From a virus (taxonomy: Duplodnaviria; Caudoviricetes), in IMG/VR virus record IMGVR_UViG_3300020042_003425, positions 1-32,988 of that record: 32,988 nt of DNA. One strand, given 5' to 3'. Positions 9,756 to 32,281 of this stretch are shown piece after piece. The notes beneath the pieces were generated by a model. It was not told the DNA's origin. It searched no databases and saw only the letters and a program-made list of their open reading frames with translations. The first letter of the stretch is position 1; each line of letters starts with the position of its first letter. Both the position numbers and the translations under genes were made by a program.

Positions 9756-11765
9756 ATGGCAGATAAAAATAGTTTGATTCAATACGTGGTTCAGAAAGTA
9801 GGGCCTGACCAATTAAAAATGATGGTGGACCAGGCCGAGCAAGAACTCAGTCAAGACCCTGATGTCACTCAGGAGGCTCTTGCTGAGTTAGAAAAGCAGC
9901 TTACTTATTTAGTTGAAAATCCGGAAACGTACCCTGAATTTGTGGTTTCTGCCGTTGAATCCGGGATGATCGATGCGGAAGATCTTCCGCAAGAATTTCA
10001 GCCTATTTTTATTGCGGTAATATTAATTGCTATATCAGAGCTTAAGAATCGTATGGCTACCCAAGGCAGCCAGATGTTTGCTAAAGGGGGTCTTGCAACT
10101 GTTGCCAATCAGTTAGCTGCAAAAGGACGCTTTGGCGACACGATGCTAGCGCACATTAATCCTCGTGAGGCTGAAGTCCTTCGCCAAATGGGAGGTTCAG
10201 GTACAATCAATCCTCATACGGGCCTTCCTGAGTTCTTTTTTAAGAAGCTTTTTAAAGCAGTTAAGAATGTGTTTAAGGCTGTTGTTAAAATAGCTGCCCC
10301 AATTGTTGCTACTGTTGTTGCAGGACCTTGGGCTGGTGCAGCGGTAGGTGCTTTGATAGGTGCTGGCGGCGGTGGCGGTTTGAAAGGGGCGTTAATCGGA
10401 GGTCTTACTGGATCGTTAGGGCCAGGAGGATTACTAGGTAACACAGCGAAAGCTTTAGGAACCGGGGTATCAAAATATTTACCTAAGCTTATTACAGATA
10501 ACATCGGTGCTCAAACATTAGGGGCCGGTTTATTAGGCGGCGCGGGTAGCGCTGCATTAGGTCAAGGTTTTTTACCGGGTGCTTTAGCAGCTGGGAGTGT
10601 GTCAGCGCTGACCCCAACTGTTACAAGTTTAACTAACAGCGCAAAAGGAATAATAGGCGGCGTAAAAGGAGTAGGAAGCAGCGCGGCCGGTTCTGGCGGA
10701 GTCTTCCCATCACAAGCTGGTGGATTAAACCAAGTAAGTAGTAATCTACTGGGATCCTCGTCTAGTGTTCCAAGAATGAGTAACGCTATTAATGCCGCTG
10801 AAGTAGGCGCTAATCCTGCGGGCTACGAGGTATATAAGAATGCTATGCAGGCTAACGCTGCTGCGGGTATTCCAGGGTTTACTAATGCGGCTGGTGCGGA
10901 GGTAGCTAAAAATGCTATGGAAGCAAACATCGCAGCGGGCATCCCAGGGTTTACTAATGCGGCTGGCGCAGAAGTAGCTAAAAATGCTATGGCGGCTAAC
11001 GCCGTTGCCGGTGTTCCAGGGTTTAGTACTAACGCGTCAAACATCGCTGCGTCAAATATAGCCGGAGGTACTGGACTAACTAGCGGTACTGATTTAATGG
11101 GTGCTACCACCATGGGAGGGGCAAATGCATCACCTGGTTTATTAATTGGCGGAGCAGCTAAAGATACTGGACTATTTGGTACTGGCATCTCTGGCAGCCA
11201 AGCGCTAATGGGGACCCTGCTTCTAGGTGGCTTAACACCGCAAGAGGGACTTAAAAAGATTGAAGAAGATCCTGCCTTGACTGCGGCACACAAAGAAGCA
11301 ATGAGCCGCGCTTTAACAAACTACACCGCTAAATACAACATGACTACCTTGCCTCAACAAGGCACCCCTGAGTATGACGACATGATGAGCAACATTAGTC
11401 AGGGTATCGGCATTACCTTTATGAACCCAACTATTACTGTTGACAATACTGGCGTTACTCAACCAATGAAACGTGGGGGAAAAGCAAAAGCTCCTGCTGG
11501 TGGATTATCTCAAATTGCTATGCTAGCAAGTGGTACAGGTTCAGGCAGAGATGATACAATTAACGCAAGATTATCAGACGGCGAATACGTGCTTGATGCT
11601 GAAACAGTGGCGCTACTTGGTAACGGTAGCACTAAGGCAGGCGCAGCAGTCCTTGACCAAATGCGCGAACAACTACGCAAACAAAAAGGTAAGGCTCTGG
11701 CAAAAGGGAAATTTTCACCTGACGCCAAATCGCCATTGGCTTACATGAAAGGTGGGTTAAAATAA
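9756..11765 (+). CDS. Internal virion / DNA ejection protein with Gly-rich membrane-type segments
   Basis: MFAKGGLA...GRFGDTMLAHINP.EA..L...GGSGTINP.TGLPEF; amphipathic KKLFKAVKNVFKAV followed by Gly-zipper hydrophobic helices; C-terminal GTGSGRDDTINARLSDGEYV motif of the kind seen at tape-measure C-termini. Confidence 0.7.
   Translation: MADKNSLIQYVVQKVGPDQLKMMVDQAEQELSQDPDVTQEALAELEKQLTYLVENPETYPEFVVSAVESGMIDAEDLPQEFQPIFIAVILIAISELKNRMATQGSQMFAKGGLATVANQLAAKGRFGDTMLAHINPREAEVLRQMGGSGTINPHTGLPEFFFKKLFKAVKNVFKAVVKIAAPIVATVVAGPWAGAAVGALIGAGGGGGLKGALIGGLTGSLGPGGLLGNTAKALGTGVSKYLPKLITDNIGAQTLGAGLLGGAGSAALGQGFLPGALAAGSVSALTPTVTSLTNSAKGIIGGVKGVGSSAAGSGGVFPSQAGGLNQVSSNLLGSSSSVPRMSNAINAAEVGANPAGYEVYKNAMQANAAAGIPGFTNAAGAEVAKNAMEANIAAGIPGFTNAAGAEVAKNAMAANAVAGVPGFSTNASNIAASNIAGGTGLTSGTDLMGATTMGGANASPGLLIGGAAKDTGLFGTGISGSQALMGTLLLGGLTPQEGLKKIEEDPALTAAHKEAMSRALTNYTAKYNMTTLPQQGTPEYDDMMSNISQGIGITFMNPTITVDNTGVTQPMKRGGKAKAPAGGLSQIAMLASGTGSGRDDTINARLSDGEYVLDAETVALLGNGSTKAGAAVLDQMREQLRKQKGKALAKGKFSPDAKSPLAYMKGGLK
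10827..11030 (+). repeat. Three tandem 72-bp (24-aa) repeats EV.KNAM.AN.AAG.PGFTNAAGA, the third incomplete
   Basis: Units start at 10827, 10899 and 10971, with near-identical DNA (aatgctatg...ccagggtttactaatgcggctgg). Confidence 0.9.
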
Positions 11766-12667
11766 TGGCAGCAACTAATTGGACCGCCGCATTATCAGGG
11801 TTATTTCAAGGCAATCCGCAGGCTGCGCCTAGCTATGCTGCAACCACATCTGACGTGCCTAAGTGGCTACAAGACTATACTGTTGACTTGTTTAGTCAGC
11901 AGCGTGCTGTCTCAGGCTTACCTTATCAATCTTACAAACTACCACGAGTAGCAGGTACCACACAGCCTACACAGCAAGCTTACCAAACGGTTCTGAACTC
12001 AGTTGGTGATTATCAACAACCGCTAGATGCTGCTATGTCTGGCACACAGAACTTAGCAAACACCAATTCGTATAGCAACGTCGCTAACTATATGAACCCG
12101 TACAACACGGCGGTGACGGATCAGATTGCTAAACTTGGTGCCCGTAACTTGACAGAGAACATACTACCTGGCGTGTCTGATCAGTTTATTCGTGCTGGTT
12201 CATTTGGTGGATCCCGTATGGGCGAGTTTGGTAACCGCGCTGTTCGTGATACTCAAGAATCGATCCTTGGTCAGCAAGCAAACGTGCTAAATACAGGCTA
12301 CACCCAAGCAATGGCAAACGCTCAGCAAGACATGACTCGTCAGCAAGGAGCTCTTTCTCAAACAGCTGAGCTTGCTAAGATGCAACAAGGTCTGGCTGCC
12401 TCAGACGCCGCCGCGCTTCAGTCTATTGGTACGGAACAACAAAATCAACAGCAAAAAGGTTTGGACATTGCTTACCAAGATTTTATCAATCAACAAAACT
12501 GGCCACAGCAGCAGATCAACAACATGTCTACTACACTTCGTGGACTACCTCCTGCAGCAATACCGACTACTCAAAACCAGACTGGTGCTACCACGCAGTT
12601 TAGTCCAAGTCCATTGTCACAAGTAGCGTCTGCTTACTTTACATCTAAAGCGTTAGGACAACCGTAA
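11765..12667 (+). CDS. DNA ejection / pilot protein
   Basis: Gln-rich and helical; YMNPY...V and AGSFGGSR motifs typical of podovirus DNA-transfer proteins; TAATG coupling. Confidence 0.7.
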   Translation: MAATNWTAALSGLFQGNPQAAPSYAATTSDVPKWLQDYTVDLFSQQRAVSGLPYQSYKLPRVAGTTQPTQQAYQTVLNSVGDYQQPLDAAMSGTQNLANTNSYSNVANYMNPYNTAVTDQIAKLGARNLTENILPGVSDQFIRAGSFGGSRMGEFGNRAVRDTQESILGQQANVLNTGYTQAMANAQQDMTRQQGALSQTAELAKMQQGLAASDAAALQSIGTEQQNQQQKGLDIAYQDFINQQNWPQQQINNMSTTLRGLPPAAIPTTQNQTGATTQFSPSPLSQVASAYFTSKALGQP

Positions 12668-15030
12668 TGGCTAATCAAATCATGACCCCACTTGAAGAAC
12701 AAGTGATGAAGGACTACGGCAAGTACATGTACAAAGGCGTGTCCTTACCTGCTAATTACAAGATGACAGGACCTTTACCTTTTGGTGTTAGCATGGTAGA
12801 CAACCAACTGCGTGTTGATCCTTCAAGTAAATTATACGGCACTCAAGGTGATATGTTTGCTGCTATTCAAAATGCTAATGCTCCTAAGTCTACTGGTCGT
12901 TTTAATATGGGGAGTCTTAGCAATTTTAATTTGTCTAATATAACGCAACCTTCTTTTCCTAATAACGCTCCTTTTTCATTAAATAAACCTAGAGGCTTTG
13001 GAATGGGAGTGGGCGGATTTAATAATCTTGGCGCTAACATAATGGGCAACATGGGTAGAATGACTGGGTTTAATACTTTTGGCGCTCTTGGTAACCGTGG
13101 TAAACCTGCTCCTGTACAAAACGTAGCTAAAGAATTTGAAGTGTCCCGAACTCTTGACGAAGCTTTGCAAGAATACTTACGCCGTCAGCCGGGTATGACA
13201 CTTGAGCAGCTAAAAGCGCAGATTGAACAAAATCGCCAAGCGATAGCTGGCATGCCTACTACTGCACCTCAAGCCCTTGGTAAACCTATGTCTATTGGGG
13301 AACTAAACGCCAAGTACTACCAAGGTGGAAACCCTTACGGTAATACATTTGGTCAAGGCTACGCTGAGGGCGGTGAAGTTAAAGGCTACGCTCGTGGTAC
13401 AGAAGATGGCCCGTTTTATGACGAGACAGATCCTAATTTTGCTGCACAAGTTCAAAATAATATGAGCAAAAACCCGTTGTATGCTCAACGCGAAATAGCG
13501 GCTCCGGCTCCTGTTGCTAGACCTTCTGCGGTAGAGGAGGCCCTGGCACAACGACGCGCAATTATGGCCGACTTAAATAAGGCCCTTACGGCAGCCCCTG
13601 TTACTACATCAGGAATGACAGATTCTGAAAGAAACTGGCGTCTAGCGGCGGCGTTTGCTAAGCCGGGTAAGACAGGCGCCTTTGGCGAAGGCTTAGGTTA
13701 TGCGGCAGAGACAATGGCCGACGTAGCGGCAGAAAAACGTAAAGAGGCTAAAGAGCAAGCGGCTATGGGGTTACAACGTTTACAGGCCCGCTCTGAGTTG
13801 GCTAACCAACAGTACGCACTAGCCCGCGAAGGTGAGATGCAAGAGCTACTTAAAAAGTACGTTAGCAAGGGCCAAGGGGTGACAGACAAAGTAACCTCTG
13901 GTGCTACTTCACAAAGCGGCGGCGCAAGTGACGGTGTCCCAGAGGATGTTAAGGCCCTAATCTTAGCGCAACCGACAGAAAAAGCTGTGGCAACCATTAT
14001 TGAGATTGCTAAAGAAAATAACAAGCCCTCTGACTTAATTAAGGGTGTTAGTTTCTTGGTTAAAAACGGTGCTATTTCGCAAGAGCAAGGTAACGCAATT
14101 GTTCAAGAAAACTTACAGGGTAAGTTAGAGCAGCTTGATGTACAAGTTCCTGAATTAGGTGGGACCTTTAAACTTACTGGTCCAGAGGCTCGTTCGTATT
14201 ATGCCGACGGTACTCTTCCTACTCGTTTAGGCGGTAAAGCTAAAACAACGGCAGCCACAAGCCCTGATACTTCAGTGGCCCCAGCTAAGCCTGTTGCGGC
14301 ACCTGTGACGCAAGAGCAAATGAAGGCCAAAGAGACTGGGATGGTTGAGCAGGCTAAGAAAGACATTGACGCTAGTGACGCTTTATTGTCTCAAAAATCT
14401 TTCGCTAAGCAGCAAAAAGATGCCGCTAAGCTAATCCTAGGTTACGCTAAAACTAGCCCTAAATCATTCGGTGTTATCGCTGATCCAAACTGGTCAAACG
14501 CTGTCGCTAATCTTTTAGAGACGGGCATTAATACGCCATTTGGTAGTCTAGGTTTGGCAGTAGAGGAACCGATTGCCAAGCTTAAACTAACTGGCCCAGA
14601 GGCTACTGTTCGTCAAATGGCGGCGGCCCCTATTGCGTTGATTGAGGTTGGTTACCGTAAGTTGTACCTAAAAGGTGAGGGCGCTGTGTCTAACATGGAA
14701 GGGGCCTTGACTAAGTACATTGGTCCACAACTTTCTGACAACGCTAAGACAGTCCAGCTTAAAGCAGGTATGATTACTATTGGTGCAGAGAAACAAGAAA
14801 AAATAGTTGAGGCCTTTGAGAAGTACAAAGAAGCTCACCCAGAGGCTGGCCCACGTTCATTCTATCAAACACCAGAGTTCAAACGGATCAGGGACGCGTA
14901 CGAAACTAAGTACCGTGCTTTTGCGAAGGCAAACGGTATCCCTGTTGATGAAGAGGTTGCCTCAAGTGGCCCATCTAAAGGCGGAAATTTACTAGATTCT
15001 TTGCAAAAAGATCCACGTTGGAATAAATAA
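12667..15030 (+). CDS. Internal virion / ejection protein (low-complexity N-part, helical body)
   Basis: Position; YAEGGEVKGYARGT motif; AFAKPGKTGAFGEGLG; GAVSNME near the C-terminus. Confidence 0.65.
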   Translation: MANQIMTPLEEQVMKDYGKYMYKGVSLPANYKMTGPLPFGVSMVDNQLRVDPSSKLYGTQGDMFAAIQNANAPKSTGRFNMGSLSNFNLSNITQPSFPNNAPFSLNKPRGFGMGVGGFNNLGANIMGNMGRMTGFNTFGALGNRGKPAPVQNVAKEFEVSRTLDEALQEYLRRQPGMTLEQLKAQIEQNRQAIAGMPTTAPQALGKPMSIGELNAKYYQGGNPYGNTFGQGYAEGGEVKGYARGTEDGPFYDETDPNFAAQVQNNMSKNPLYAQREIAAPAPVARPSAVEEALAQRRAIMADLNKALTAAPVTTSGMTDSERNWRLAAAFAKPGKTGAFGEGLGYAAETMADVAAEKRKEAKEQAAMGLQRLQARSELANQQYALAREGEMQELLKKYVSKGQGVTDKVTSGATSQSGGASDGVPEDVKALILAQPTEKAVATIIEIAKENNKPSDLIKGVSFLVKNGAISQEQGNAIVQENLQGKLEQLDVQVPELGGTFKLTGPEARSYYADGTLPTRLGGKAKTTAATSPDTSVAPAKPVAAPVTQEQMKAKETGMVEQAKKDIDASDALLSQKSFAKQQKDAAKLILGYAKTSPKSFGVIADPNWSNAVANLLETGINTPFGSLGLAVEEPIAKLKLTGPEATVRQMAAAPIALIEVGYRKLYLKGEGAVSNMEGALTKYIGPQLSDNAKTVQLKAGMITIGAEKQEKIVEAFEKYKEAHPEAGPRSFYQTPEFKRIRDAYETKYRAFAKANGIPVDEEVASSGPSKGGNLLDSLQKDPRWNK

Positions 15031-15041
15031 GGAGCGCTGCT

Positions 15042-18000
15042 GTGGCAGATCAAAAAGTACAAGCTGGAACAGTCATTAATGCTCCTGAGGTAGAAGTTAA
15101 AGCCGATCCAAAGTTATCTGACGAGCAAATTCTTATTGCCAGAAAGATCCACGACGCTGCCGTTAAGTATGGCGTTGATCCGGAGTACGCTTTACGTATA
15201 GGCCACATTGAAAATCGATACAACACTGGGCCATCTCCGGCCGGCGCTATTGGACCGATGCAAATAATGCCCGGCACCGCTAAAGACCTTAAGATTGACC
15301 CTAATAACATTGATCAAAATATTGACGGTGGCGTTAGGCTTCTTAAGCAGCACATGGATAAATACAAAAATCCATACATTGCGGGGATTGCGTATAACGC
15401 TGGCCCAGGCGTGGCGGATAAATTCTTAGAAACAAATGACTCCTCTGTGTTGCCTGACGAGACCCTTAATTACGTTAAAATGCTGCACGAGAATTACACC
15501 CCGGGTGATCAAATTGACACCGGTGAAATTCCTGTTATAACAGAACTTAAAGTTGAAGAGACCCCTGGCGAATTTAAACGCAATGATTTAGGTGATCAAA
15601 TAGGTGCGGGTGCGGGTGCCGGCATTGGTATTGCCGCCGGTCGGTACTCTGATAAACAAGTTGAGGCTGCTCAAAAGGCAGAGGCCAAGGGTGAGGGCGC
15701 CGCTAAAAAAATCACAGAGAAACAAATTGCCTTAGAAGAAAAACAAAAGGCTCTATCTGGCCGCGCTACTAATCAACAAAAGATTATTGAGTCAGCCAAT
15801 AAAGAGTTAGAGACGCTAGCTAAACAGCACGAAGAGGCGCAAAAACGTTTAGCAAAAGCCACTGATAATGCACGCCGTTTTAGCGTGTTAGAAGAAAACG
15901 TAAAGACCACCCCTGGTGGCGTCACGCAAGAGGGCGGCATTGGATCTGGTGCAATGCGTCACTCTAACACTATGGGTGAGATCCATGAGGCTAACGTTGT
16001 TCGTAAAGGAACAGAGGCCGCTGGCTCTGGCTACTCTCAAAAGTCTCGCTTGATTGTCCCTGATAAGTACGCCAGTGCTGAGATCTACAATCCTGAACAA
16101 AAGGCAGCCCAGGCAGAGTTTGCTAAGGCACAAAGAGAGGCAGCGGATTTAGATAAAAAGTTAGCTGACGCTCAAAAACGTGTAGACGCTGAGTCTAATC
16201 GTTTACGTAACATTACAGAAAAAGGACCCTCTGGGCTTACTTCTGCAGAGACACAGCTTGAAATTGCTAAACGCAATTACGCAGAGGCTAAGGTTAAACA
16301 GCCAGGCAAATTTTTAAAAGTTATGCGTAACATTAGCGCCATCCCTGGTGCAAACGTTTTACCTGGCGCTTTTGCTGGATTAGACGCTGCAGAGGCTTAT
16401 GAACGCTTTAAACAAGGCGACATTACTGGCGGCATTATTAGCGGTACCGGCGCCGTAGGCGGTATGTTATCAATGTTGCCTCCGGTTACACCGGTTACGG
16501 CCGTGTTAAAAGGTGTAGGCACTGGTATGACAATGGCCGCGCCCGCGATGAATTATTTCCGTGATAAGGGTAACAAGGCCCCTGAGGGTGTTCATTTTGC
16601 AGAGGGCGGCGCAGTAAAAAAGTTTGGCGCGGGCGGTAAGGTTGTTGCTATCGCTGCAGAGAAAGCTAAAAAATTTCTTCCGACTGTCCGTAGCCGTGAG
16701 CGCGTAGCGTTCCCTGAGATCTACCGTGATCCGCGTATCATTGTTGGCGAGTCTGCCGGCCGCGTATCAAAAGAGAGCCCATTGCTTAGTCAATTATTTG
16801 GCGTAGACCGTTACGATCTTGATGCAATGACAAGAGACATGGGCCATGATTTAGCCGCACCGTATTACATAGCAACTAGGCCGCCTGAGTATTTAGGTGG
16901 CTTAAAAGGTAAGGCTAACACGCAGCGCATGCAAGATATTTTAGAGATTGCGCAGGCAGACCCTCGTTTTGCAGGATCTTACGGTTGGTTTCAGTCAGAG
17001 CCTTTAAGACAGCGCTTTATCGAACTTAACCCTAACGGCGCACGTGACTTTGATCGGTTTAGTCAATTAGGCGCGGCACTGTCTCCATCGACAGCGGTGC
17101 CTAAAGAGATTGAACGCTCAAGCGTCGCTTATTTAATGGATAAAGAGGGGCGCCTTTCAGACTTTTTAGATCCACGTAATATGCCTAAAGGTTATGGCCA
17201 CGCTTACCACACGACCGCTCATAATGCGGGCGTACGTAACATGATTGAGCGTGGTGATTTTAGACCAGTTAAATTAAAAGACGCGCCTAAAACACGCGTG
17301 TACTATGGCTCACGTACTGGCGAAAACTTAGACGTACCGACAGCCGACGCTCACTTTGTACGCGGTATTGGTTTGGCTGACTTACGCCCATCAACGAAGG
17401 CTGACGACTTTGGCAGTAGTATCTCAGCGACAGAGTTAGACCCGGTTGCTCAGTGGTACCGCTCTAAAGTGGCTGAGGCTATGGACATGCGTGCCTCACC
17501 AGCGCAGGCTTTACAGTGGAACGCGATGGGCACATCTACCGGCGTTGAGACAGAATTAGGGGTCCCTTTCTTAGAGTTAGTTGCGCGTCGTATCGGTCAG
17601 GTGGCTGAAAAAGAGGGCGTTAAACCTACTAAAGTGCGTGACGAATTTATTCGTGGTGAGCGTCACTTAGCGGAGGGAGGCCTTGTAAAAGGTTACGCCG
17701 AGGGAGACTACGTTGATTTAAGTAACAGCTCCCGCACAATGCGTGGGGAAGAACGTAACGAGCGTCCTTATGTTAGTCGTCCAGCTTGGATGGAAGGGCT
17801 AAACAATGACGCGCCGGTTAGAGCAATGCGAAAGGCGTCTTCAGTCGCAGGGACTGGTTTAGATTATTTAAAACGCGGACTAAATCAATTTAGGCCCATT
17901 GATCAAGCGTATTTAATCCCTAGCATGGAAGCAAACCTTGGTGATATTTTGTTAGGCGGCGCCTCTGACACATTAAAACAATGGAGTAAACCAGGAGAGG

Positions 18001-18842
18001 GCCCTATTACAGGCGGCCAGTATTATGTAAACCCCGTAACTGGTGAGGGAAGCTTTACTCCGGTAGAGCCGGACATTATGGGGCTCGCTAACGTAGGTAG
18101 CTTATACGGCATGGGTTTATCTAAACCTGTCACTGCTCCGTTTAAAATGCTGTCTCAAAAGTACGGTCAAAAAGCAGCGAGTAAAATGGCTAGTCCTTAC
18201 GCAATGGTTGAGGCAACGTCGCCTGAGTTATTGCAAGACACTTACCGTATGCGTGGCACCGGTGACATGGCAAACGATCCGCTTGGTTTATCAATGTCCG
18301 ACCTACGCGCTAACACAGCGCTAGAACGTGCAGGTCTAAGCAAGTACGACGTCCAACCTGGACAGGGTGCCTGGGGCGGTGGCGGCGAGAGTGAATTTAA
18401 TCGCGGCTACTCTATTAAGTTACCACGTGGCAACATGAAAAAATCAGAGGGATCGTTAGCGCAGTTTGGTAGCGACACTGATCAGATGATGATGTCGGCT
18501 GTTAAATTTGTGCCTCAAAAATCATTCGCTAAAAGTACAGCGATTGAAGTTAAAGGCGTAACCGGGAACGACATTGTTAGACTAAATAAAAAACTAGGTG
18601 ATGAGTTTGTGATTCAACATCGCCCACAAACTAACTCGGCCGTGATTTTTAATTACACAGACAAGCCACGTTATATGGGCGACCTTGAAGAGGCTGTTAA
18701 TAAGATTGTTCCTAACGGTAGAGTGTCCCCTGGTACGTACGAATCAAATGTTATTGATAGTTCGCAGTACGCAAGTAAGGGCGCTAAACCAAAAGGCCGT
18801 AAAACAATTGAGGTTGAACAAAAAATTATAAATCGTAAATAG
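15042..18842 (+). CDS. Multi-module internal virion protein: SLT lytic transglycosylase, coiled coil, Gly-rich hairpin and two cargo modules
   Basis: SLT motifs IENRYN (catalytic Glu), SPAGAIGPMQIMPGTA, NIDGGVRLL and AYNAGPG; RBS AGGAG with GTG start; FAEGG and LAEGG doublets at 16596 and 17667. Confidence 0.8.
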   Translation: MADQKVQAGTVINAPEVEVKADPKLSDEQILIARKIHDAAVKYGVDPEYALRIGHIENRYNTGPSPAGAIGPMQIMPGTAKDLKIDPNNIDQNIDGGVRLLKQHMDKYKNPYIAGIAYNAGPGVADKFLETNDSSVLPDETLNYVKMLHENYTPGDQIDTGEIPVITELKVEETPGEFKRNDLGDQIGAGAGAGIGIAAGRYSDKQVEAAQKAEAKGEGAAKKITEKQIALEEKQKALSGRATNQQKIIESANKELETLAKQHEEAQKRLAKATDNARRFSVLEENVKTTPGGVTQEGGIGSGAMRHSNTMGEIHEANVVRKGTEAAGSGYSQKSRLIVPDKYASAEIYNPEQKAAQAEFAKAQREAADLDKKLADAQKRVDAESNRLRNITEKGPSGLTSAETQLEIAKRNYAEAKVKQPGKFLKVMRNISAIPGANVLPGAFAGLDAAEAYERFKQGDITGGIISGTGAVGGMLSMLPPVTPVTAVLKGVGTGMTMAAPAMNYFRDKGNKAPEGVHFAEGGAVKKFGAGGKVVAIAAEKAKKFLPTVRSRERVAFPEIYRDPRIIVGESAGRVSKESPLLSQLFGVDRYDLDAMTRDMGHDLAAPYYIATRPPEYLGGLKGKANTQRMQDILEIAQADPRFAGSYGWFQSEPLRQRFIELNPNGARDFDRFSQLGAALSPSTAVPKEIERSSVAYLMDKEGRLSDFLDPRNMPKGYGHAYHTTAHNAGVRNMIERGDFRPVKLKDAPKTRVYYGSRTGENLDVPTADAHFVRGIGLADLRPSTKADDFGSSISATELDPVAQWYRSKVAEAMDMRASPAQALQWNAMGTSTGVETELGVPFLELVARRIGQVAEKEGVKPTKVRDEFIRGERHLAEGGLVKGYAEGDYVDLSNSSRTMRGEERNERPYVSRPAWMEGLNNDAPVRAMRKASSVAGTGLDYLKRGLNQFRPIDQAYLIPSMEANLGDILLGGASDTLKQWSKPGEGPITGGQYYVNPVTGEGSFTPVEPDIMGLANVGSLYGMGLSKPVTAPFKMLSQKYGQKAASKMASPYAMVEATSPELLQDTYRMRGTGDMANDPLGLSMSDLRANTALERAGLSKYDVQPGQGAWGGGGESEFNRGYSIKLPRGNMKKSEGSLAQFGSDTDQMMMSAVKFVPQKSFAKSTAIEVKGVTGNDIVRLNKKLGDEFVIQHRPQTNSAVIFNYTDKPRYMGDLEEAVNKIVPNGRVSPGTYESNVIDSSQYASKGAKPKGRKTIEVEQKIINRK

Positions 18843-26352: not shown

Positions 26353-26380
26353 TTGACATTTATTTCCTGTCCTGTATAAT
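26353..26380 (+). promoter_or_regulatory. Consensus sigma70 promoter, repeated promoter-leader cassette copy 1
   Basis: TTGACA (26353-26358), 16 bp, TATAAT (26375-26380); followed by TTACATGGTCGATT and TAGAAAGAGGAGAAAG. Confidence 0.85.
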
Positions 26381-27676: not shown

Positions 27677-29568
27677 AGAGCGCAAAGTTTATTGCCATTG
27701 ATACTGAAACCTTTGACCCGGAGCTGCTAGATAATGGCCCGGGCTGGGGTAGAGGTGTCGGGCACATTGTAGGTATATCGGCGGCCGTTGATGGTGAGAG
27801 CTGGTACTTTCCCATGAGGCATGAAGGCGGGGGCAACATGCCGATTGAGAATGTTCTTGCCTGGGCCGCCGATAATATCTCTGACACCCCTGGTGTACCA
27901 AAGATATTTGCTAACGCTCAGTATGATATTGGCTGGCTAAAACAGGAGGGCATCCCTGTCTCTGGCCGCGTACACGATGTGCAGCTGGCTGAGCCGTTAC
28001 TGAATGAGCACAGCTTTAGCTACTCTTTGGACTCGATTGCCAACAAGTACCTGGGCAAAGGCAAGATCCAAGATGACATGTACGACAAGCTCAAGGCACA
28101 ATTTGGTGGACCCAAGGGGCGTAAGCAGGCCGGCAATATTTGGCGGGCGCACGCTGACTTGGTGACAGAGTACGCCAAGGCTGACGCGTCATTACTGATT
28201 GAGATACTGCCTAAGCAGCTGGCGCTGTTAAAAGAGCAGGAGCTTATGAGTGTCTATGATCTAGAGTGTGAGCTGGTGCACCTGCTGATTGATATGCGCA
28301 TGCGGGGCGTTCGTGTTGATGTTGAGAAGGCCGAGCGCGTGTACAAAGATTTTAGTAACCAGGTGGATCAGATGCAGCGTGAGCTTGGTGACGTTGAGAT
28401 TGCACGGGCGTCATCTATCGCGGCGTACTGTGACAAGAAGGGAATTAAATACGGCACCACCGCTACAGGGAAGCCACAGTTTGTTGGATCCTGGCTGCGT
28501 GAGCATATCCCTCAGATCGCTGATATTCGTCGCCTGACGAAGGCCAAGGATACTTTTATCAAGGGTTATATTTTAGACAAGCACATTGGTGGGCGCGTTC
28601 ATGGGCAGTTTAATCAGCTACGGTCTGATGACTATGGTACGGTCTCTGGGCGATTAAGCGCCAGCGGACCTAACCTACAGAATATTCCGTCACGCGATGA
28701 GGAGATTGGGCCGCTAGTGAGGTCAATGTTTTTGCCGGACGAGGGTGAGATTATTTGCAGCCAGGATTGGTCGCAGATTGAGTTTCGGATGTTTGTACAC
28801 TACGCAAAGGACCAAGATTTAATAAACGCTTACTCAATAGAGGGCACTGACTTTCACAGTGTGGTGGCTGAGCTATTCGGGAATATGATACCACGTAAGA
28901 TTATTAAAAACTTTAACTTTATGCTGCTGTATGGTGGTGGTGTGAATAAATTGGCCGTGATGTTGGCGGATAACTTAACGCTGGATGAGGCTAACACGCT
29001 GCTAGATAAGCTGATGAATGACATGCCTGAGATTGGAATTAATCCACAGGATGATCTGTACTTACGCCTGGCTAAGGTATTGTTTGAGGCCTACAAGATT
29101 AAGTTTCCGGCAGCAAAGCGGTTGGCGGATCTTTCGTCACGTACGGCTAACGAGCGAGGCTTTGTGAAGACACTACTGGGCCGTCGTGCTAGGTTTGATC
29201 TGTGGGTGCCGAGTAAGTGGAGCAGCGAGGCAAAGACGCCGCTGCCTTACGATGAGGCGGTAATTGCTTATGGTCACGGTGTATCCCGATCAGGGACACA
29301 CAAGACGCTAAACAGCATCCTCCAAGGATCGGCGGCGGATGTTATGAAGACGGCGATGGTAAAGATGGTACGAGCCGGTGTGACTGACGTGCTTGGGCCG
29401 CCACTATTGACGGTGCACGATGAGCTAGTGTGGTCAGCGCCTGACACTAAGGAGGCAAAAGAGGCCCTGGATCAGGCTAAGTGGATTATGTGTAATTGTA
29501 TGCCAAACCTACGTGTGCCACTAATGGTAGACGATGAGCGCGGCACTAACTGGGGGAACGTTAAATGA
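27658..29568 (+). CDS. Family A DNA polymerase with 3'-5' exonuclease and no 5'-3' exonuclease
   Basis: Exo DTET, NAQYD, YAKAD; SGRLS...PNLQNIP; motif A DWSQIEFR; motif B RKIIKNFNFMLLYG; motif C VHDEL. Confidence 0.95.
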   Translation: MGFPNLKSAKFIAIDTETFDPELLDNGPGWGRGVGHIVGISAAVDGESWYFPMRHEGGGNMPIENVLAWAADNISDTPGVPKIFANAQYDIGWLKQEGIPVSGRVHDVQLAEPLLNEHSFSYSLDSIANKYLGKGKIQDDMYDKLKAQFGGPKGRKQAGNIWRAHADLVTEYAKADASLLIEILPKQLALLKEQELMSVYDLECELVHLLIDMRMRGVRVDVEKAERVYKDFSNQVDQMQRELGDVEIARASSIAAYCDKKGIKYGTTATGKPQFVGSWLREHIPQIADIRRLTKAKDTFIKGYILDKHIGGRVHGQFNQLRSDDYGTVSGRLSASGPNLQNIPSRDEEIGPLVRSMFLPDEGEIICSQDWSQIEFRMFVHYAKDQDLINAYSIEGTDFHSVVAELFGNMIPRKIIKNFNFMLLYGGGVNKLAVMLADNLTLDEANTLLDKLMNDMPEIGINPQDDLYLRLAKVLFEAYKIKFPAAKRLADLSSRTANERGFVKTLLGRRARFDLWVPSKWSSEAKTPLPYDEAVIAYGHGVSRSGTHKTLNSILQGSAADVMKTAMVKMVRAGVTDVLGPPLLTVHDELVWSAPDTKEAKEALDQAKWIMCNCMPNLRVPLMVDDERGTNWGNVK

Positions 29569-29780
29569 CTTTTAAAGACACAGAGCGCAGTTTTCATTTT
29601 GAGACGGCGATTAGTTTTACTAGGTTTAAACCTAAAATGATGGAGGCAGTCAAGATGGTGGTGCTGCACGATTTTACTTACGCAGCCGCTGGCCGCAAGT
29701 ATGAAATATCACGGCAGTCTGTCCACAAGGCAGTTAAAAGCTTTTATAAGACTTGTCAACACTTGAGTATTCCTATATAA
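29565..29780 (+). CDS. Small HTH DNA-binding protein (TrfB/KorA-like)
   Basis: AVKMVVLHDFTYAAAGRKYEISRQSVHKAV HTH pattern; ATGA coupling. Confidence 0.7.
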   Translation: MTFKDTERSFHFETAISFTRFKPKMMEAVKMVVLHDFTYAAAGRKYEISRQSVHKAVKSFYKTCQHLSIPI

Positions 29781-29781
29781 T
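29753..29781 (+). promoter_or_regulatory. Sigma70-type promoter for the deacetylase cassette
   Basis: TTGTCA (29753-29758), 17 bp, TATAAT (29776-29781); TAGAAAGGA RBS before ATG 29813. Confidence 0.75.
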
Positions 29782-29812
29782 ACTTGGCTCAGAAAGTTAG
29801 AAAGGATTAGCC

Positions 29813-30757
29813 ATGACAATTAAAGTATTTTATAACGATGATTTATCTATCACCAGCAAGAGCCCGTACCCGATCCCTACGGAACGTAAGGCCGCGGCTT
29901 TTGTTAAGGCCCTAGGGTGGGACAAAGATATTATCTATCATGGCCTTGTTGAGTACTACGAGACATTTGATGTGGGCACCGAGGCGTACGTTGAGTTTAA
30001 CTTGCGCCGCGTTCATAGTAAGTACTACTTTGAGAACGCCAAACCTGGTTGGGGCCAACGCCGTAATGCGCTAGCGCACAACACTATTTTATTTAAGGCC
30101 GTCAATCACGCGCAGCTAACGCGCGGCGTTGCGTTTGCGCCAGTCTCAGGGTTTCACCACGCCGGGTACGATTACGGCTGGGGCTTCTGTACCTTTAACG
30201 GCCTGGTTGCTGCCGCGTTAGAGCTCCAGGGGAGGGTGCTCATCTTAGACGGTGATCAGCATGAGGGTGACGGCTCTATTGACATCATTGATCGTCTAGA
30301 TTTGTCTGACAGGATCCACAATCACTCTATCGAATCCTGGGACGACATCCCTGACTTCGAGGGCTACGATCACATTATCTACCAGGCCGGCGCAGACTCG
30401 CACTATTTAGACGGCGGCTACTTAAATGATGAGACCTGGGTCAAGCGTGATCAGCTTGTGTTTCAACAAGCAAAGGAGCATAATGTGCCAATTACTGTGA
30501 CCTTCGCTGGTGGATACTCGGCGCTTGGTAAGGTCGTGGACTTACACTTAAGCACGTATTGGACGGCGACAGAGGTATACTATGGACGTGAGTTTTTGGC
30601 AGAAATTAGGCGCGAGATTGCTCTCAACGGCGGAGAAAGAACCTGGGATCTTTCAGCTTCCACGCAACTTGCGCTCTACGGAGAGCTTGCCCGAGATGGT
30701 GGAGCTGGGACACGGGGAGAGTTCCATCGACACTCTGAACAAGGGCTACATCATTAA
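29813..30757 (+). CDS. Zn-dependent histone-deacetylase-family (HDAC/AcuC, class IV-like) deacetylase
   Basis: GFHHA (His pair), GFCTFN, LDGDQHEGDG (Zn ligands D and H), YQAGAD (Zn ligand D), AGGY (catalytic Tyr); the last ~58 codons overlap the next gene. Confidence 0.92.
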   Translation: MTIKVFYNDDLSITSKSPYPIPTERKAAAFVKALGWDKDIIYHGLVEYYETFDVGTEAYVEFNLRRVHSKYYFENAKPGWGQRRNALAHNTILFKAVNHAQLTRGVAFAPVSGFHHAGYDYGWGFCTFNGLVAAALELQGRVLILDGDQHEGDGSIDIIDRLDLSDRIHNHSIESWDDIPDFEGYDHIIYQAGADSHYLDGGYLNDETWVKRDQLVFQQAKEHNVPITVTFAGGYSALGKVVDLHLSTYWTATEVYYGREFLAEIRREIALNGGERTWDLSASTQLALYGELARDGGAGTRGEFHRHSEQGLHH

Positions 30758-31397
30758 CAACCGGTTTAATAATTTTAAAAAGTGGGCCGACCAACAGTGG
30801 GACCCACGTTTAATTAATAAATACGAGAACGCAATAGTAGACCTTAATTTACCTATCTCGGTGGTTGACGCAATGAACGCTAGAGGCGGCGCAGTGCCTG
30901 CCTATTTTCGCGTGTACGAAGACATTGCTAACCGTGGTGGCCACAATGTGTCAGAGGGTCTGACACCTATTAATGCAAGCCGCCGTACGTCTACAATGCT
31001 GTCTTACGGTTTACGAGACCCTGATCGACTAAAACACATTGTTATGTCACCTGACCAGGGAATTGATCCGGTGTACTTCCAAAGTATGACCCCCGAGGGT
31101 AAGATTGGTATGCTAGCCAGTCGTGAGTTAGAAAACGTACGTCAACACGCGCCGGCAGAGTTAATGATGGGCGTAGCGAGCCCGCAAGATATTCCGCTGT
31201 TTGCTAAATATGTACGCGGCACTGTTAAGCCTCAAAGCTTTACTGATCCGCGTTCCGCTATTGGTGAGTCTACCTTACGCCGTGGCGTGTTACTTGATGC
31301 GCTATCAAGTGGCAAGCAAGCCCCAGCTAGGACGCTAGAGAAATCATTTTACGCTCGGGGAGGCTTAGCACAAGCTTGTGATTACATGCACAAATAA
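30582..31397 (+). CDS. Putative GNAT-like acetyltransferase with a C-terminal YARGGLA motif shared with the virion proteins
   Basis: GAGG RBS; ISVVDAMNARGGAVPAY...IANRGG.NVSEGLTPINASRR fits the GNAT beta4-loop-alpha3-beta5-alpha4 pattern. The ORF looks solid; the function is inferred by eye. Confidence 0.55.
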   Translation: MDVSFWQKLGARLLSTAEKEPGIFQLPRNLRSTESLPEMVELGHGESSIDTLNKGYIINNRFNNFKKWADQQWDPRLINKYENAIVDLNLPISVVDAMNARGGAVPAYFRVYEDIANRGGHNVSEGLTPINASRRTSTMLSYGLRDPDRLKHIVMSPDQGIDPVYFQSMTPEGKIGMLASRELENVRQHAPAELMMGVASPQDIPLFAKYVRGTVKPQSFTDPRSAIGESTLRRGVLLDALSSGKQAPARTLEKSFYARGGLAQACDYMHK

Positions 31398-31402
31398 AAG
31401 TG

Positions 31403-31431
31403 TTGACACAATATAGTTAAGTCTGTATAAT
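31403..31431 (+). promoter_or_regulatory. Consensus sigma70 promoter, repeated promoter-leader cassette copy 2
   Basis: TTGACA (31403-31408), 17 bp, TATAAT (31426-31431); followed by TTACATGGTCGATT and TAGAAAGAGGAGAAAG. Confidence 0.88.
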
Positions 31432-31478
31432 GTTTTACATGGTCGATTGGGGCCATTTAGAAAGAGGAGAAAGTAATC

Positions 31479-31937
31479 ATGGCATATGTATCAAAAGACA
31501 AAAAAACAACGATCGCTGCGGCACTTAAAAAAGTTATTCCAGCAGGCTGGAAGTACTCACTGGCTGTTGCGCATCACAGTAAGATTACTCTAACAATTAG
31601 CGCAGCGCCGGTTGATATTGTTAGAGCTTACGTTAACTTTGTTACCGCTAAGGCCGCACTAAAGGGTGACGAGTTTGATCGTAAGAATTTATTGCAGCAC
31701 GTTTTATACGTTGAAGAACGTGGGTACATTGACGTTAACGAGTACCACCTAGACAGTCAATTTACGGGTGAGTTGTTAGAAGTATTTCAAAAAATCCGTG
31801 AGGCTTTAAACACTGATAACTTTGACAACAGCGACGTGTACACTGACTACTTCCACGTTGGGCATTACGTTGGAATTAAAGTAGGTAGATGGGACAAGCC
31901 GTTTGTTGTAACCACGCCGCTTAAAAAAGCGGCATAG
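31479..31937 (+). CDS. Phage early protein, LPD29-like (large-polyvalent-protein-associated domain)
   Basis: SLAV.HHS.I.L.I and NFDNSD..TDYFHV..Y..I..G.W motifs recalled from this family. Confidence 0.6.
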   Translation: MAYVSKDKKTTIAAALKKVIPAGWKYSLAVAHHSKITLTISAAPVDIVRAYVNFVTAKAALKGDEFDRKNLLQHVLYVEERGYIDVNEYHLDSQFTGELLEVFQKIREALNTDNFDNSDVYTDYFHVGHYVGIKVGRWDKPFVVTTPLKKAA

Positions 31938-31953
31938 AAAGGGGAGAACTATT

Positions 31954-32127
31954 ATGGGTAGAGTTAAGGCAGCCTGGACGGTTGAGCAAGAGAACGAGTT
32001 TCAAGATCCAGGCTTTGAGGATCTAATTAACGAGATTCGCGCATTCAGTCGCGAGTTAGCTGAAGATAACGACAGAGCAGAGGAGCGTGAAAATGAGCGA
32101 GCAAGACAACGTGTTTCCATTCGGTAA
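31954..32127 (+). CDS. Small charged hypothetical protein (57 aa, below the track cut-off)
   Basis: TAGAAAGGGGAG RBS; MGRVKAAW...RVSIR*. Confidence 0.6.
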   Translation: MGRVKAAWTVEQENEFQDPGFEDLINEIRAFSRELAEDNDRAEERENERARQRVSIR

Positions 32128-32281
32128 GTACGATTCTAACATTGCAGAGCTGCCTGATGAGCGCATTTTAGGTGTGTTAAACGGGCTGCAGCAAAACCTG
32201 TTACTGGTTGTGCAAAAGTTAGATATTCTTGAACACAGAATTAAGGAGCTAGAATCATGTTCTTCGGAAACTCAGAAGTAA
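32093..32281 (+). CDS. Small coiled-coil hypothetical protein (start ATG 32093)
   Basis: GAGGAG RBS. Confidence 0.6.
   Translation: MSEQDNVFPFGKYDSNIAELPDERILGVLNGLQQNLLLVVQKLDILEHRIKELESCSSETQK

Follow-up and report, generated by a model that had tools for sequence, protein, structure and literature searches.

Phage acetyltransferases are known as one-way weapons, and DarT/DarG is a modification/reversal pair of ADP-ribosylation. AcrVA5 (PDB 6iuf), a phage effector acetyltransferase, is described as a solo early protein with neither a phage-encoded eraser nor a cargo motif, and we know of no role previously assigned to the HDAC genes of phages. Here we describe two overlapping genes, one for a Zn-dependent HDAC-family deacylase (gene 1) and one for a predicted GNAT-fold acyltransferase (gene 2), in the virus record IMGVR_UViG_3300020042_003425 (Duplodnaviria; Caudoviricetes), a linear record of 32,988 nucleotides (nt) with a completeness of about 56%, the whole of which is called the window below. 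Among described systems the acu operon of Bacillus likewise encodes a GNAT writer (AcuA) and an HDAC-family eraser (AcuC) together, but this is chromosomal metabolic control of acetyl-CoA synthetase, with a cluster 2 enzyme and no virion tag (PMC13121692); gene 2 has no sequence match to AcuA-type profiles. Phage polyvalent proteins with GNAT domains or LPD37 are likewise predicted to be capsid-delivered protein-modifying enzymes, some late genes encoding them in solo form (Iyer et al., 2017, PMC5512222; PF18853). The gene-2 family resembles them in matching LPD37, weakly, and in occurring fused to InPase and PcfJ domains, but gene 2 of the window is solo with a dedicated HDAC neighbour, and the main text of PMC5512222 mentions neither ‘deacetylase’ nor ‘LPD37’. 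Rac of phiKMV-like phages is described as a solo early effector acetyltransferase without a phage-encoded eraser or cargo motif (PMC7552054). T4 Alt is an injected modifying enzyme, as is proposed for gene 2, but its chemistry is that of ADP-ribose and its fold is unrelated; the jumbo-phage ‘toggles’, SIR2/SLOG/ARC fusions with Macro, NADAR or Nudix, are alike in joining a writer to an enzymatic eraser, again with ADP-ribose and unrelated folds (PMC7824862). Searches of the open-licence PMC and bioRxiv literature turned up neither a phage HDAC with a virion-tagged GNAT as its partner nor the GG motif described below; the module is real and conserved, and apparently undescribed. The strict pairing of HDAC and predicted GNAT-fold genes over dozens of uncultured phages offers each of the two a function that can be tested, and points to a modification of the host that is timed and reversible within the infection.

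An intact HDAC active site and an overlapping partner gene

Gene 1 matches PF00850 at 55.4 bits (E 7.9e-15, cut-off 27.9 bits) and its best PDB sequence match is 9gkv (E 6.7e-14), ahead of HDAC6 (5.6e-11). As a preliminary description of this DNA had stated, the HDAC residues (HH, DxH, GAD and GGY; Table 1) are intact: the His–His dyad (H115, H116), the Asp/His/Asp zinc ligands (D148, H150, D195) and the catalytic Tyr of GGY (Y235) are all kept, and H115, H116, D146, D148, H150, D195 and G233-G234-Y235 are invariant in 32/32 paired representatives. Judged from its sequence, gene 1 would be a catalytically active deacylase. The replacement of RPP by VSGFHH and the AGGY motif (the residue before GGY is Ala in 31/32 paired representatives and Gly in 1/32) fit the long-chain pocket pattern of VcHdaH/HDAC11. 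VcHdaH, of the cluster 5b classical deacylase/HDAC11 class (9gkv), is reported as a lysine de-decanoylase whose motifs are SGGYHH and GGGY, as in 9gkv, and loss of RPP together with a small residue before GGY is tied to space for long acyl chains (PMC11532494). Gene 1 shares with it SGxHH in place of RPP, the small residue before GGY and all Zn and catalytic residues, and differs in being phage-encoded, compact (a 258-residue domain) and paired with a predicted acyltransferase; the main text of PMC11532494 has no mention of ‘phage’ or ‘virus’. The pocket is predicted to permit an acyl chain longer than acetyl, and the pair suggests a route to a natural substrate for the HDAC11-like deacylases of bacteria, which are poorly understood. 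The ‘acetylation’ of the earlier description should read ‘acylation’ because the HDAC has long-chain rather than AcuC-type pocket motifs. After GAD, where acetylpolyamine amidohydrolases have their PEG or PIS gatekeeper motif, there is no PEG or PIS (sequence GADSHYLDGGYL), and no such enzyme is among the 46 PDB matches of gene 1.

A search with an HDAC alignment found 81 viral loci, of which 80 were kept, making 81 with that of the window, and partners were scored with a gene-2 profile made from proteins without any locus context. Gene 2 is present at 40/81 loci and overlaps the HDAC 3′ end in 40/40, by 11–176 nt; 32 pairs are co-oriented with the HDAC first, where the overlap length depends on the chosen start, and eight are tail-to-tail, where it is fixed by the stop codons. 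In the manner of toxin–antitoxin genes, the two are adjacent, overlapping and kept together in 40/40 paired loci. When loci are collapsed by HDAC identity 27/62 (at 90%), 22/53 (at 70%) and 8/26 (at 50%) are paired. In the controls gene 2 was found at 0/80 bacterial-genome HDAC loci and at 0/80 (first profile) or 1/80 (wider profile) metagenome HDAC loci, the HDAC of the single positive locus (L006) being sister to a paired HDAC; it is also absent beside gp202 of Rhodococcus phage E3, the sole cultured-phage HDAC found. The reverse search, seeded with HDAC-linked gene-2 members and covering one clade only, gave 64 loci, 27 of them on known contigs; among the 37 new ones 31 have an HDAC directly upstream and the other six are cut by the contig end. 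The co-occurrence that the preliminary description had proposed to test is seen in both search directions (40/81; 31/31 testable new contigs). The genes stay paired at pairwise identities as low as 24% for the HDAC and 12% for gene 2. They stay paired also through an inversion into separate operons, which favours function over co-transcription as the cause. Median identity is 25% for gene 2 vs 46% for the HDAC (a Mantel correlation was not counted as co-evolution), and the partner trees are not fully congruent, L126 grouping differently for the two genes. IMG/VR scans with single proteins gave nothing usable; the narrow alignment A1 matched no locus in either the viral or the metagenome contigs, and alignment A7 matched none.

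The 176-nt overlap in the window had been noted from the start and is confirmed. Gene 2 reads in the +1 frame relative to gene 1 and GAGG precedes its ATG; the HDAC domain comprises residues 1–258 (to about 30586), and the remaining 56 residues read the gene-2 start off-frame. A similar tail is seen in 12/12 close HDAC relatives, 10/12 of the tails resembling that of the window above 200 shuffles. An independent 20.6-kb contig from a related phage (run X1) covers both genes and differs at 156 letters over 29000–32226; its single compensated indel pair (30451/30454) is outside the overlap, and an assembly artefact was ruled out because this contig reads through the overlap without a frameshift. 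Programmed frameshifting that would fuse the HDAC to gene 2 was ruled out as well: gene 2 has its own start and ribosome-binding site, its residues 1–58 are conserved in P0002 and P0004, the overlap varies over 11–176 nt and eight loci are tail-to-tail. Distant pairs without the tail exclude the latter as a functional domain.

In L184 (7593–11248) two divergent copies of gene 2 follow a single HDAC; the second copy is 1.5 kb downstream and has no HDAC of its own. In L130 (10821–20831, minus strand) a giant LPD38-bearing polyvalent protein lies tail-to-tail with the HDAC (26-nt overlap); part of it is remotely similar to gene 2 (hhalign probability 67%, E 5e-5) and shows both a GxG loop and an NxxxRR signature. 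This HDAC is outside the paired clades, adjoining an unpaired one on the tree, and the locus has no bearing on the 40 solo pairs. L149 and L153, viral HDAC loci without gene 2 in two related phages, have another conserved tail-to-tail neighbour of about 470–510 residues, possibly another partner family.

Predicted fold, operon position and GG motif of gene 2

The AlphaFold2 model of gene 2 (57 sequences; pLDDT 87.2, pTM 0.87) shows a mixed beta-sheet with the beta-alpha-beta-alpha core of the GNAT superfamily. In a fold search against the PDB 41 of the top 50 representatives were GNAT-fold, about nine of these being assigned otherwise than by their titles; the first seven matches of another fold search were all acyltransferases or GNAT-fold, and the best viral fold match was a polyvalent protein (E 1.4e-3, TM 0.60). 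Foldseek against the PDB was blank, the ESM Atlas gave no usable match for two family members, and gene 2 has no significant family in Pfam, PHROGs or NCBIfam and no match among 50,697 phage records, i.e. no cultured phage. On the model, gene 2 is predicted to be a GNAT fold binding acyl-coenzyme A (acyl-CoA). Of the GNAT motif A (R/Q-x-x-G-x-G/A), the G-x-G/A part is conserved at the right place and the R/Q position is variable: G102 is Gly in 46/57 members, position 104 is Gly/Ala in 56/57 and Y108 is present in 57/57, relatives having GSGVGKRLY, GSGMAKTLY or GEGMGTPLY. The family signature L-[TS]-x-x-N-x-x-R-R is conserved (L127 in 56/57; T/S128, N131 and R/K134 each in 57/57), and in the C-terminal domain G176, L178, G228 and R234 are almost invariant. 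LPD37 is matched by 18/57 family members, at best with E 9.5e-7; the protein of the window scores 11.2 bits, below the cut-off of 27, and the relative P0134 reaches 26.3 bits. By these profile scores gene 2 is related to LPD37 but not placed as a member, and the family suggests a fold for this polyvalent-protein domain. Gene 2 is a 271-residue solo protein and no large multi-domain fusion; the relatives fused to InPase and PcfJ are P0150 and P0152.

In five of seven distinct tail-to-tail loci (L087, L090, L106, L107 and L109, four of which belong to one clade) gene 2 is the last gene of a late operon and starts at or within 4 nt of the stop of an internal virion or DNA ejection gene; the gene before it in L005 is unannotated, and L086 stops at a contig end. 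This computational check of its context in relatives agrees with the tie between gene 2 and the ejection proteins drawn earlier; in the window itself gene 2 lies outside the late ejection module. In two complete genomes, G003 and G005, the HDAC is the last gene of an opposite-strand operon with thymidylate synthase (in G003 also with helicase and polymerase). Of the representatives, 18/25 co-oriented but 0/7 tail-to-tail ones have a consensus sigma70 promoter immediately before the HDAC, so a host promoter probably drives both genes of the co-oriented loci, that of the window among them. The earlier term ‘co-expressed’ accordingly fits the co-oriented loci but not the tail-to-tail ones, where the genes are in different operons.

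Gene 2 does not end in FYARGGLA, as first described: YARGGLA is present, but eight residues follow it. On a matrix from the gene-2 family, this motif (xxxGG[LV]) scores at least 6 bits within the last 100 residues in 63/65 distinct gene-2 open reading frames (ORFs), the other two having weaker GG variants; because the matrix came from that family, this count is one of retention, not discovery. G260-G261 is invariant in 57/57 members. Applied to the 34 proteins of the window, a matrix from 31 distinct gene-2 family sites outside the window’s own clade gave seven matches of at least 8 bits, five of them in the ejection block, and 0/200 shuffles reached five, so the sharing of the motif with that block exceeds chance; the near-copy FAKGGLA noticed earlier is among the sites in Table 1. 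In five near-complete relatives the motif is on proteins encoded between terminase and portal, among them an ART-PolyVal-like protein (E 4.7e-4) and polyvalent proteins with InPase or PcfJ. It is also on the products of the genes that follow capsid and phrog_3287, and there are a few matches elsewhere (e.g. the DNA polymerase in G003). It is therefore common to ejection-module and polyvalent proteins. It also stands where domains meet, both in P0150 and P0152, which join a gene-2 domain to InPase, and in the 1266-residue SLT-bearing protein of the window, and as either would fit such positions it may be a loading signal or a maturation-protease site. The motif may mark capsid cargo, which would make injected effectors predictable from sequence.

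A 270-residue unannotated post-capsid protein (L292 5933–6748 in G002; L291 11291–12103 in G001) has up to four motif copies, four in G002. The ART-PolyVal-like protein between terminase and portal in G005 (L303 6618–7937) ends in the motif and adjoins an InPase polyvalent protein. Several tail-to-tail gene-2 proteins (L087, L107, L109, L086, L005) end in a Cys-x-Cys peptide after the motif, and some members of the window’s clade also end in Cys-containing tails. In the 1266-residue protein (15042–18842) a 342-residue segment (16641–17666) between two GG-motif pairs has no Pfam match; it looks like a separate cargo domain and may, judged by eye, be helix-hairpin-helix glycosylase-like.

Proposed role of the pair and its alternatives

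The kind of system is likely to be an injected modifying enzyme with enzymatic reversal. We propose that the gene-2 protein would be loaded into the capsid via its C-terminal motif, be injected with the phage DNA and acylate a host protein, most likely at an amine (lysine or N-terminus), to aid takeover or blunt defence; the deacylase, made in the cytoplasm from a host-type promoter, would remove the acyl mark once phage expression is under way. Packaging, catalysis, a common substrate and a purpose of reversal are all taken on inference here, and reversal would most likely end an early host-takeover step and shield the producing cell during the build-up of new gene-2 protein that precedes packaging. 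The fold model, the HDAC linkage and the ejection-operon context are in keeping with the packaged writer and reversing eraser of the preliminary description. Several points weigh against them. The fold scores of gene 2 against GNATs are weak; there is no GNAT profile match by sequence in Pfam (57 members), NCBIfam (5 members) or PDB sequences, although this would be expected of a remote branch. These two points also qualify the GNAT core placed earlier at 30855–31017, for which the GNAT-like model and the presence of the Gly loop in that segment speak. Thirdly, the paired HDACs cluster on the tree (4 changes vs 24.1 in shuffles, on a quick, unfinished 103-row tree; on a 40-row tree they are on one side of a weakly supported branch, support 52), and one origin is therefore possible, the loci not being independent events. 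Finally, the host-type promoter before the pair is in tension, the main one, with strictly late expression; the tension would ease were such promoters still active at late times and the writer, as it builds up, held harmless by the HDAC. Taking these together, we consider the chances of a packaged gene-2 acyltransferase whose mark the HDAC removes to be evenly balanced. The fuller version is possible but doubtful: a widespread group of podophage-like phages would run its own reversible long-chain acylation. Its LPD37-related writer would be addressed to the capsid by a general xxxGG[LV] tag, which an ADP-ribosyltransferase, a pyrophosphatase and ejection proteins carry as well; once injected it would acylate a host protein, until an HDAC11-like deacylase of the phage switches it off. 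If true, no acyl writer/eraser circuit encoded by a phage would precede it, LPD37 would be given the GNAT fold, and a tag of seven residues would serve to find injected cargo and also to load it.

An intracellular switch without packaging would account for the promoter directly before the HDAC in 18/25 co-oriented loci and for the eraser-first overlapping order in 32/40. Both proteins would then be made early from the shared promoter and control how much acyl mark a host or phage protein bears (as a timer, in superinfection exclusion or in toxin–antitoxin-like addiction), with the motif as a protein-interaction tag instead of a capsid address; we think this unlikely, as gene 2 is behind ejection genes in a late operon in 5/7 tail-to-tail loci and the motif, kept in 63/65 ORFs, is concentrated in ejection and polyvalent proteins. 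Distinctly unlikely is cooperation of the two enzymes, the HDAC stripping a host acyl mark (e.g. a long-chain acyl or an acylated small molecule) and gene 2 installing another, or both hitting one defence pathway at different times. The long-chain pocket motifs and the differing placement of L126, by which one HDAC type would accept varied partners, would suit it, but strict overlap in 40/40 and the faster divergence of gene 2 fit a variable effector with a generic protective enzyme. That Tyr108 and Asn131 are invariant and the Gly loop conserved at 17–30% identity, that pairing is kept across an inversion and in 31/31 testable new contigs, and that gene 2 leaves the virion module together with the HDAC, all argue against the view that gene 2 is an accessory of ejection without catalysis, its GNAT-like fold decayed, and that the HDAC is a separate auxiliary gene travelling with it by descent; the weak fold scores, the lack of a sequence-level GNAT match and a possible single origin of the paired HDACs would be explained by it, and we hold it to be quite improbable. 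The same writer/eraser logic with a polyamine, an aminoacyl-tRNA or a DNA base as substrate, in the last case by a Mom-like acylation that the incoming genome would receive and later lose, is very improbable, since the nearest solved HDAC relative is the lysine long-chain deacylase VcHdaH and no acetylpolyamine amidohydrolase, and a macromolecular target of conflict suits an enzyme that diverges fast and is likely injected better than a metabolite does, even though phage spermidine N-acetyltransferases and giant-virus HDAC-fold polyamine amidohydrolases exist (PMC9992855, where the amidohydrolases are all from Imitervirales), Mom-family GNATs acylate DNA (PMC7824862), gene 2 has a conserved Arg pair (134–135) and Elp3, polyamine and aminoglycoside acetyltransferases are among its tied fold matches.

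Feature coordinates and neighbouring genes

Table 1. Positions of the features of the cassette and of the GG-motif sites in the window
Feature	Position	Strand	Basis or remark
Sigma70-type promoter before the pair, TTGTCA-17-TATAAT	29753..29781	+	11/12 consensus matches
Gene 1, Zn-dependent HDAC-family deacylase, predicted eraser	29813..30757	+	314 residues; PF00850
VSGFHH, at the RPP position of strict deacetylases	30143..30160	+	alignment to 9gkv
HH	30155..30160		
DGDQH	30248..30262		
GAD	30389..30397		
AGGY	30506..30517		
Gene 2, LPD37-related protein predicted to be a GNAT-fold acyltransferase, a writer and virion cargo	30582..31397	+	271 residues
176-nt overlap, HDAC tail as off-frame reading of the gene-2 N-terminus	30582..30757	+	ORF coordinates
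Predicted GNAT-like domain, about residues 33–166	30678..31079	+	span of GNAT matches
Motif-A-like Gly loop NARGGAVPAY, predicted acyl-CoA pyrophosphate binding	30876..30905	+	conservation in 57 members
Family signature LTPINASRR	30960..30986	+	alignment of 57 members
Conserved helical C-terminal domain of gene 2	31092..31337	+	model secondary structure
YARGGLA, predicted virion-cargo motif	31350..31370	+	near gene-2 C-terminus
Next promoter, TTGACA-17-TATAAT	31403..31431	+	perfect sigma70 consensus
FAKGGLA in 669-residue ejection-block protein	10077..10097	+	motif matrix; adjoins phrog_4287 DNA ejection protein 11765–12667
YMKGGLK, second copy in the 669-residue protein	11742..11762	+	motif matrix
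YAEGGEV in 787-residue ejection-block protein	13360..13380	+	motif matrix
FAEGGAV (16596) and LAEGGLV (17667) flanking the unnamed domain of the 1266-residue SLT-bearing protein	16596..17687	+	motif matrix

The window has tail and ejection genes for an adaptor, a phrog_3287 structural protein, a phrog_4287 DNA ejection protein and the SLT-bearing protein, and a replication block of SNF2 helicase, primase, UvrD helicase and family A DNA polymerase (Pfam, PHROGs). The pair is placed directly 3′ of the polymerase between two near-consensus sigma70 promoters, and the promoter-bounded two-gene unit described earlier is present with both promoters and both ORFs. Weak promoter-like sites in the region are at chance level (25 vs 20 in shuffles), and these two promoters rank within its three best sites. 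The single RNA run compared had coverage only at 31762–31973, outside the pair. The bacterial HDACs nearest to gene 1 are 44–47% identical in the best segments, many of them from Betaproteobacteria, and a host assignment from them was dropped as they are too distant. Perfect sigma70 consensus promoters at 26353–26380 and at the end of the cassette each precede small-gene clusters, and part of the latter promoter recurs elsewhere in a related contig. A 71-residue ORF (29565–29780) overlaps the polymerase stop and the promoter of the pair; it has weak helix-turn-helix and sigma region 4 matches (E 0.03–0.2) and is a possible regulator of the cassette.

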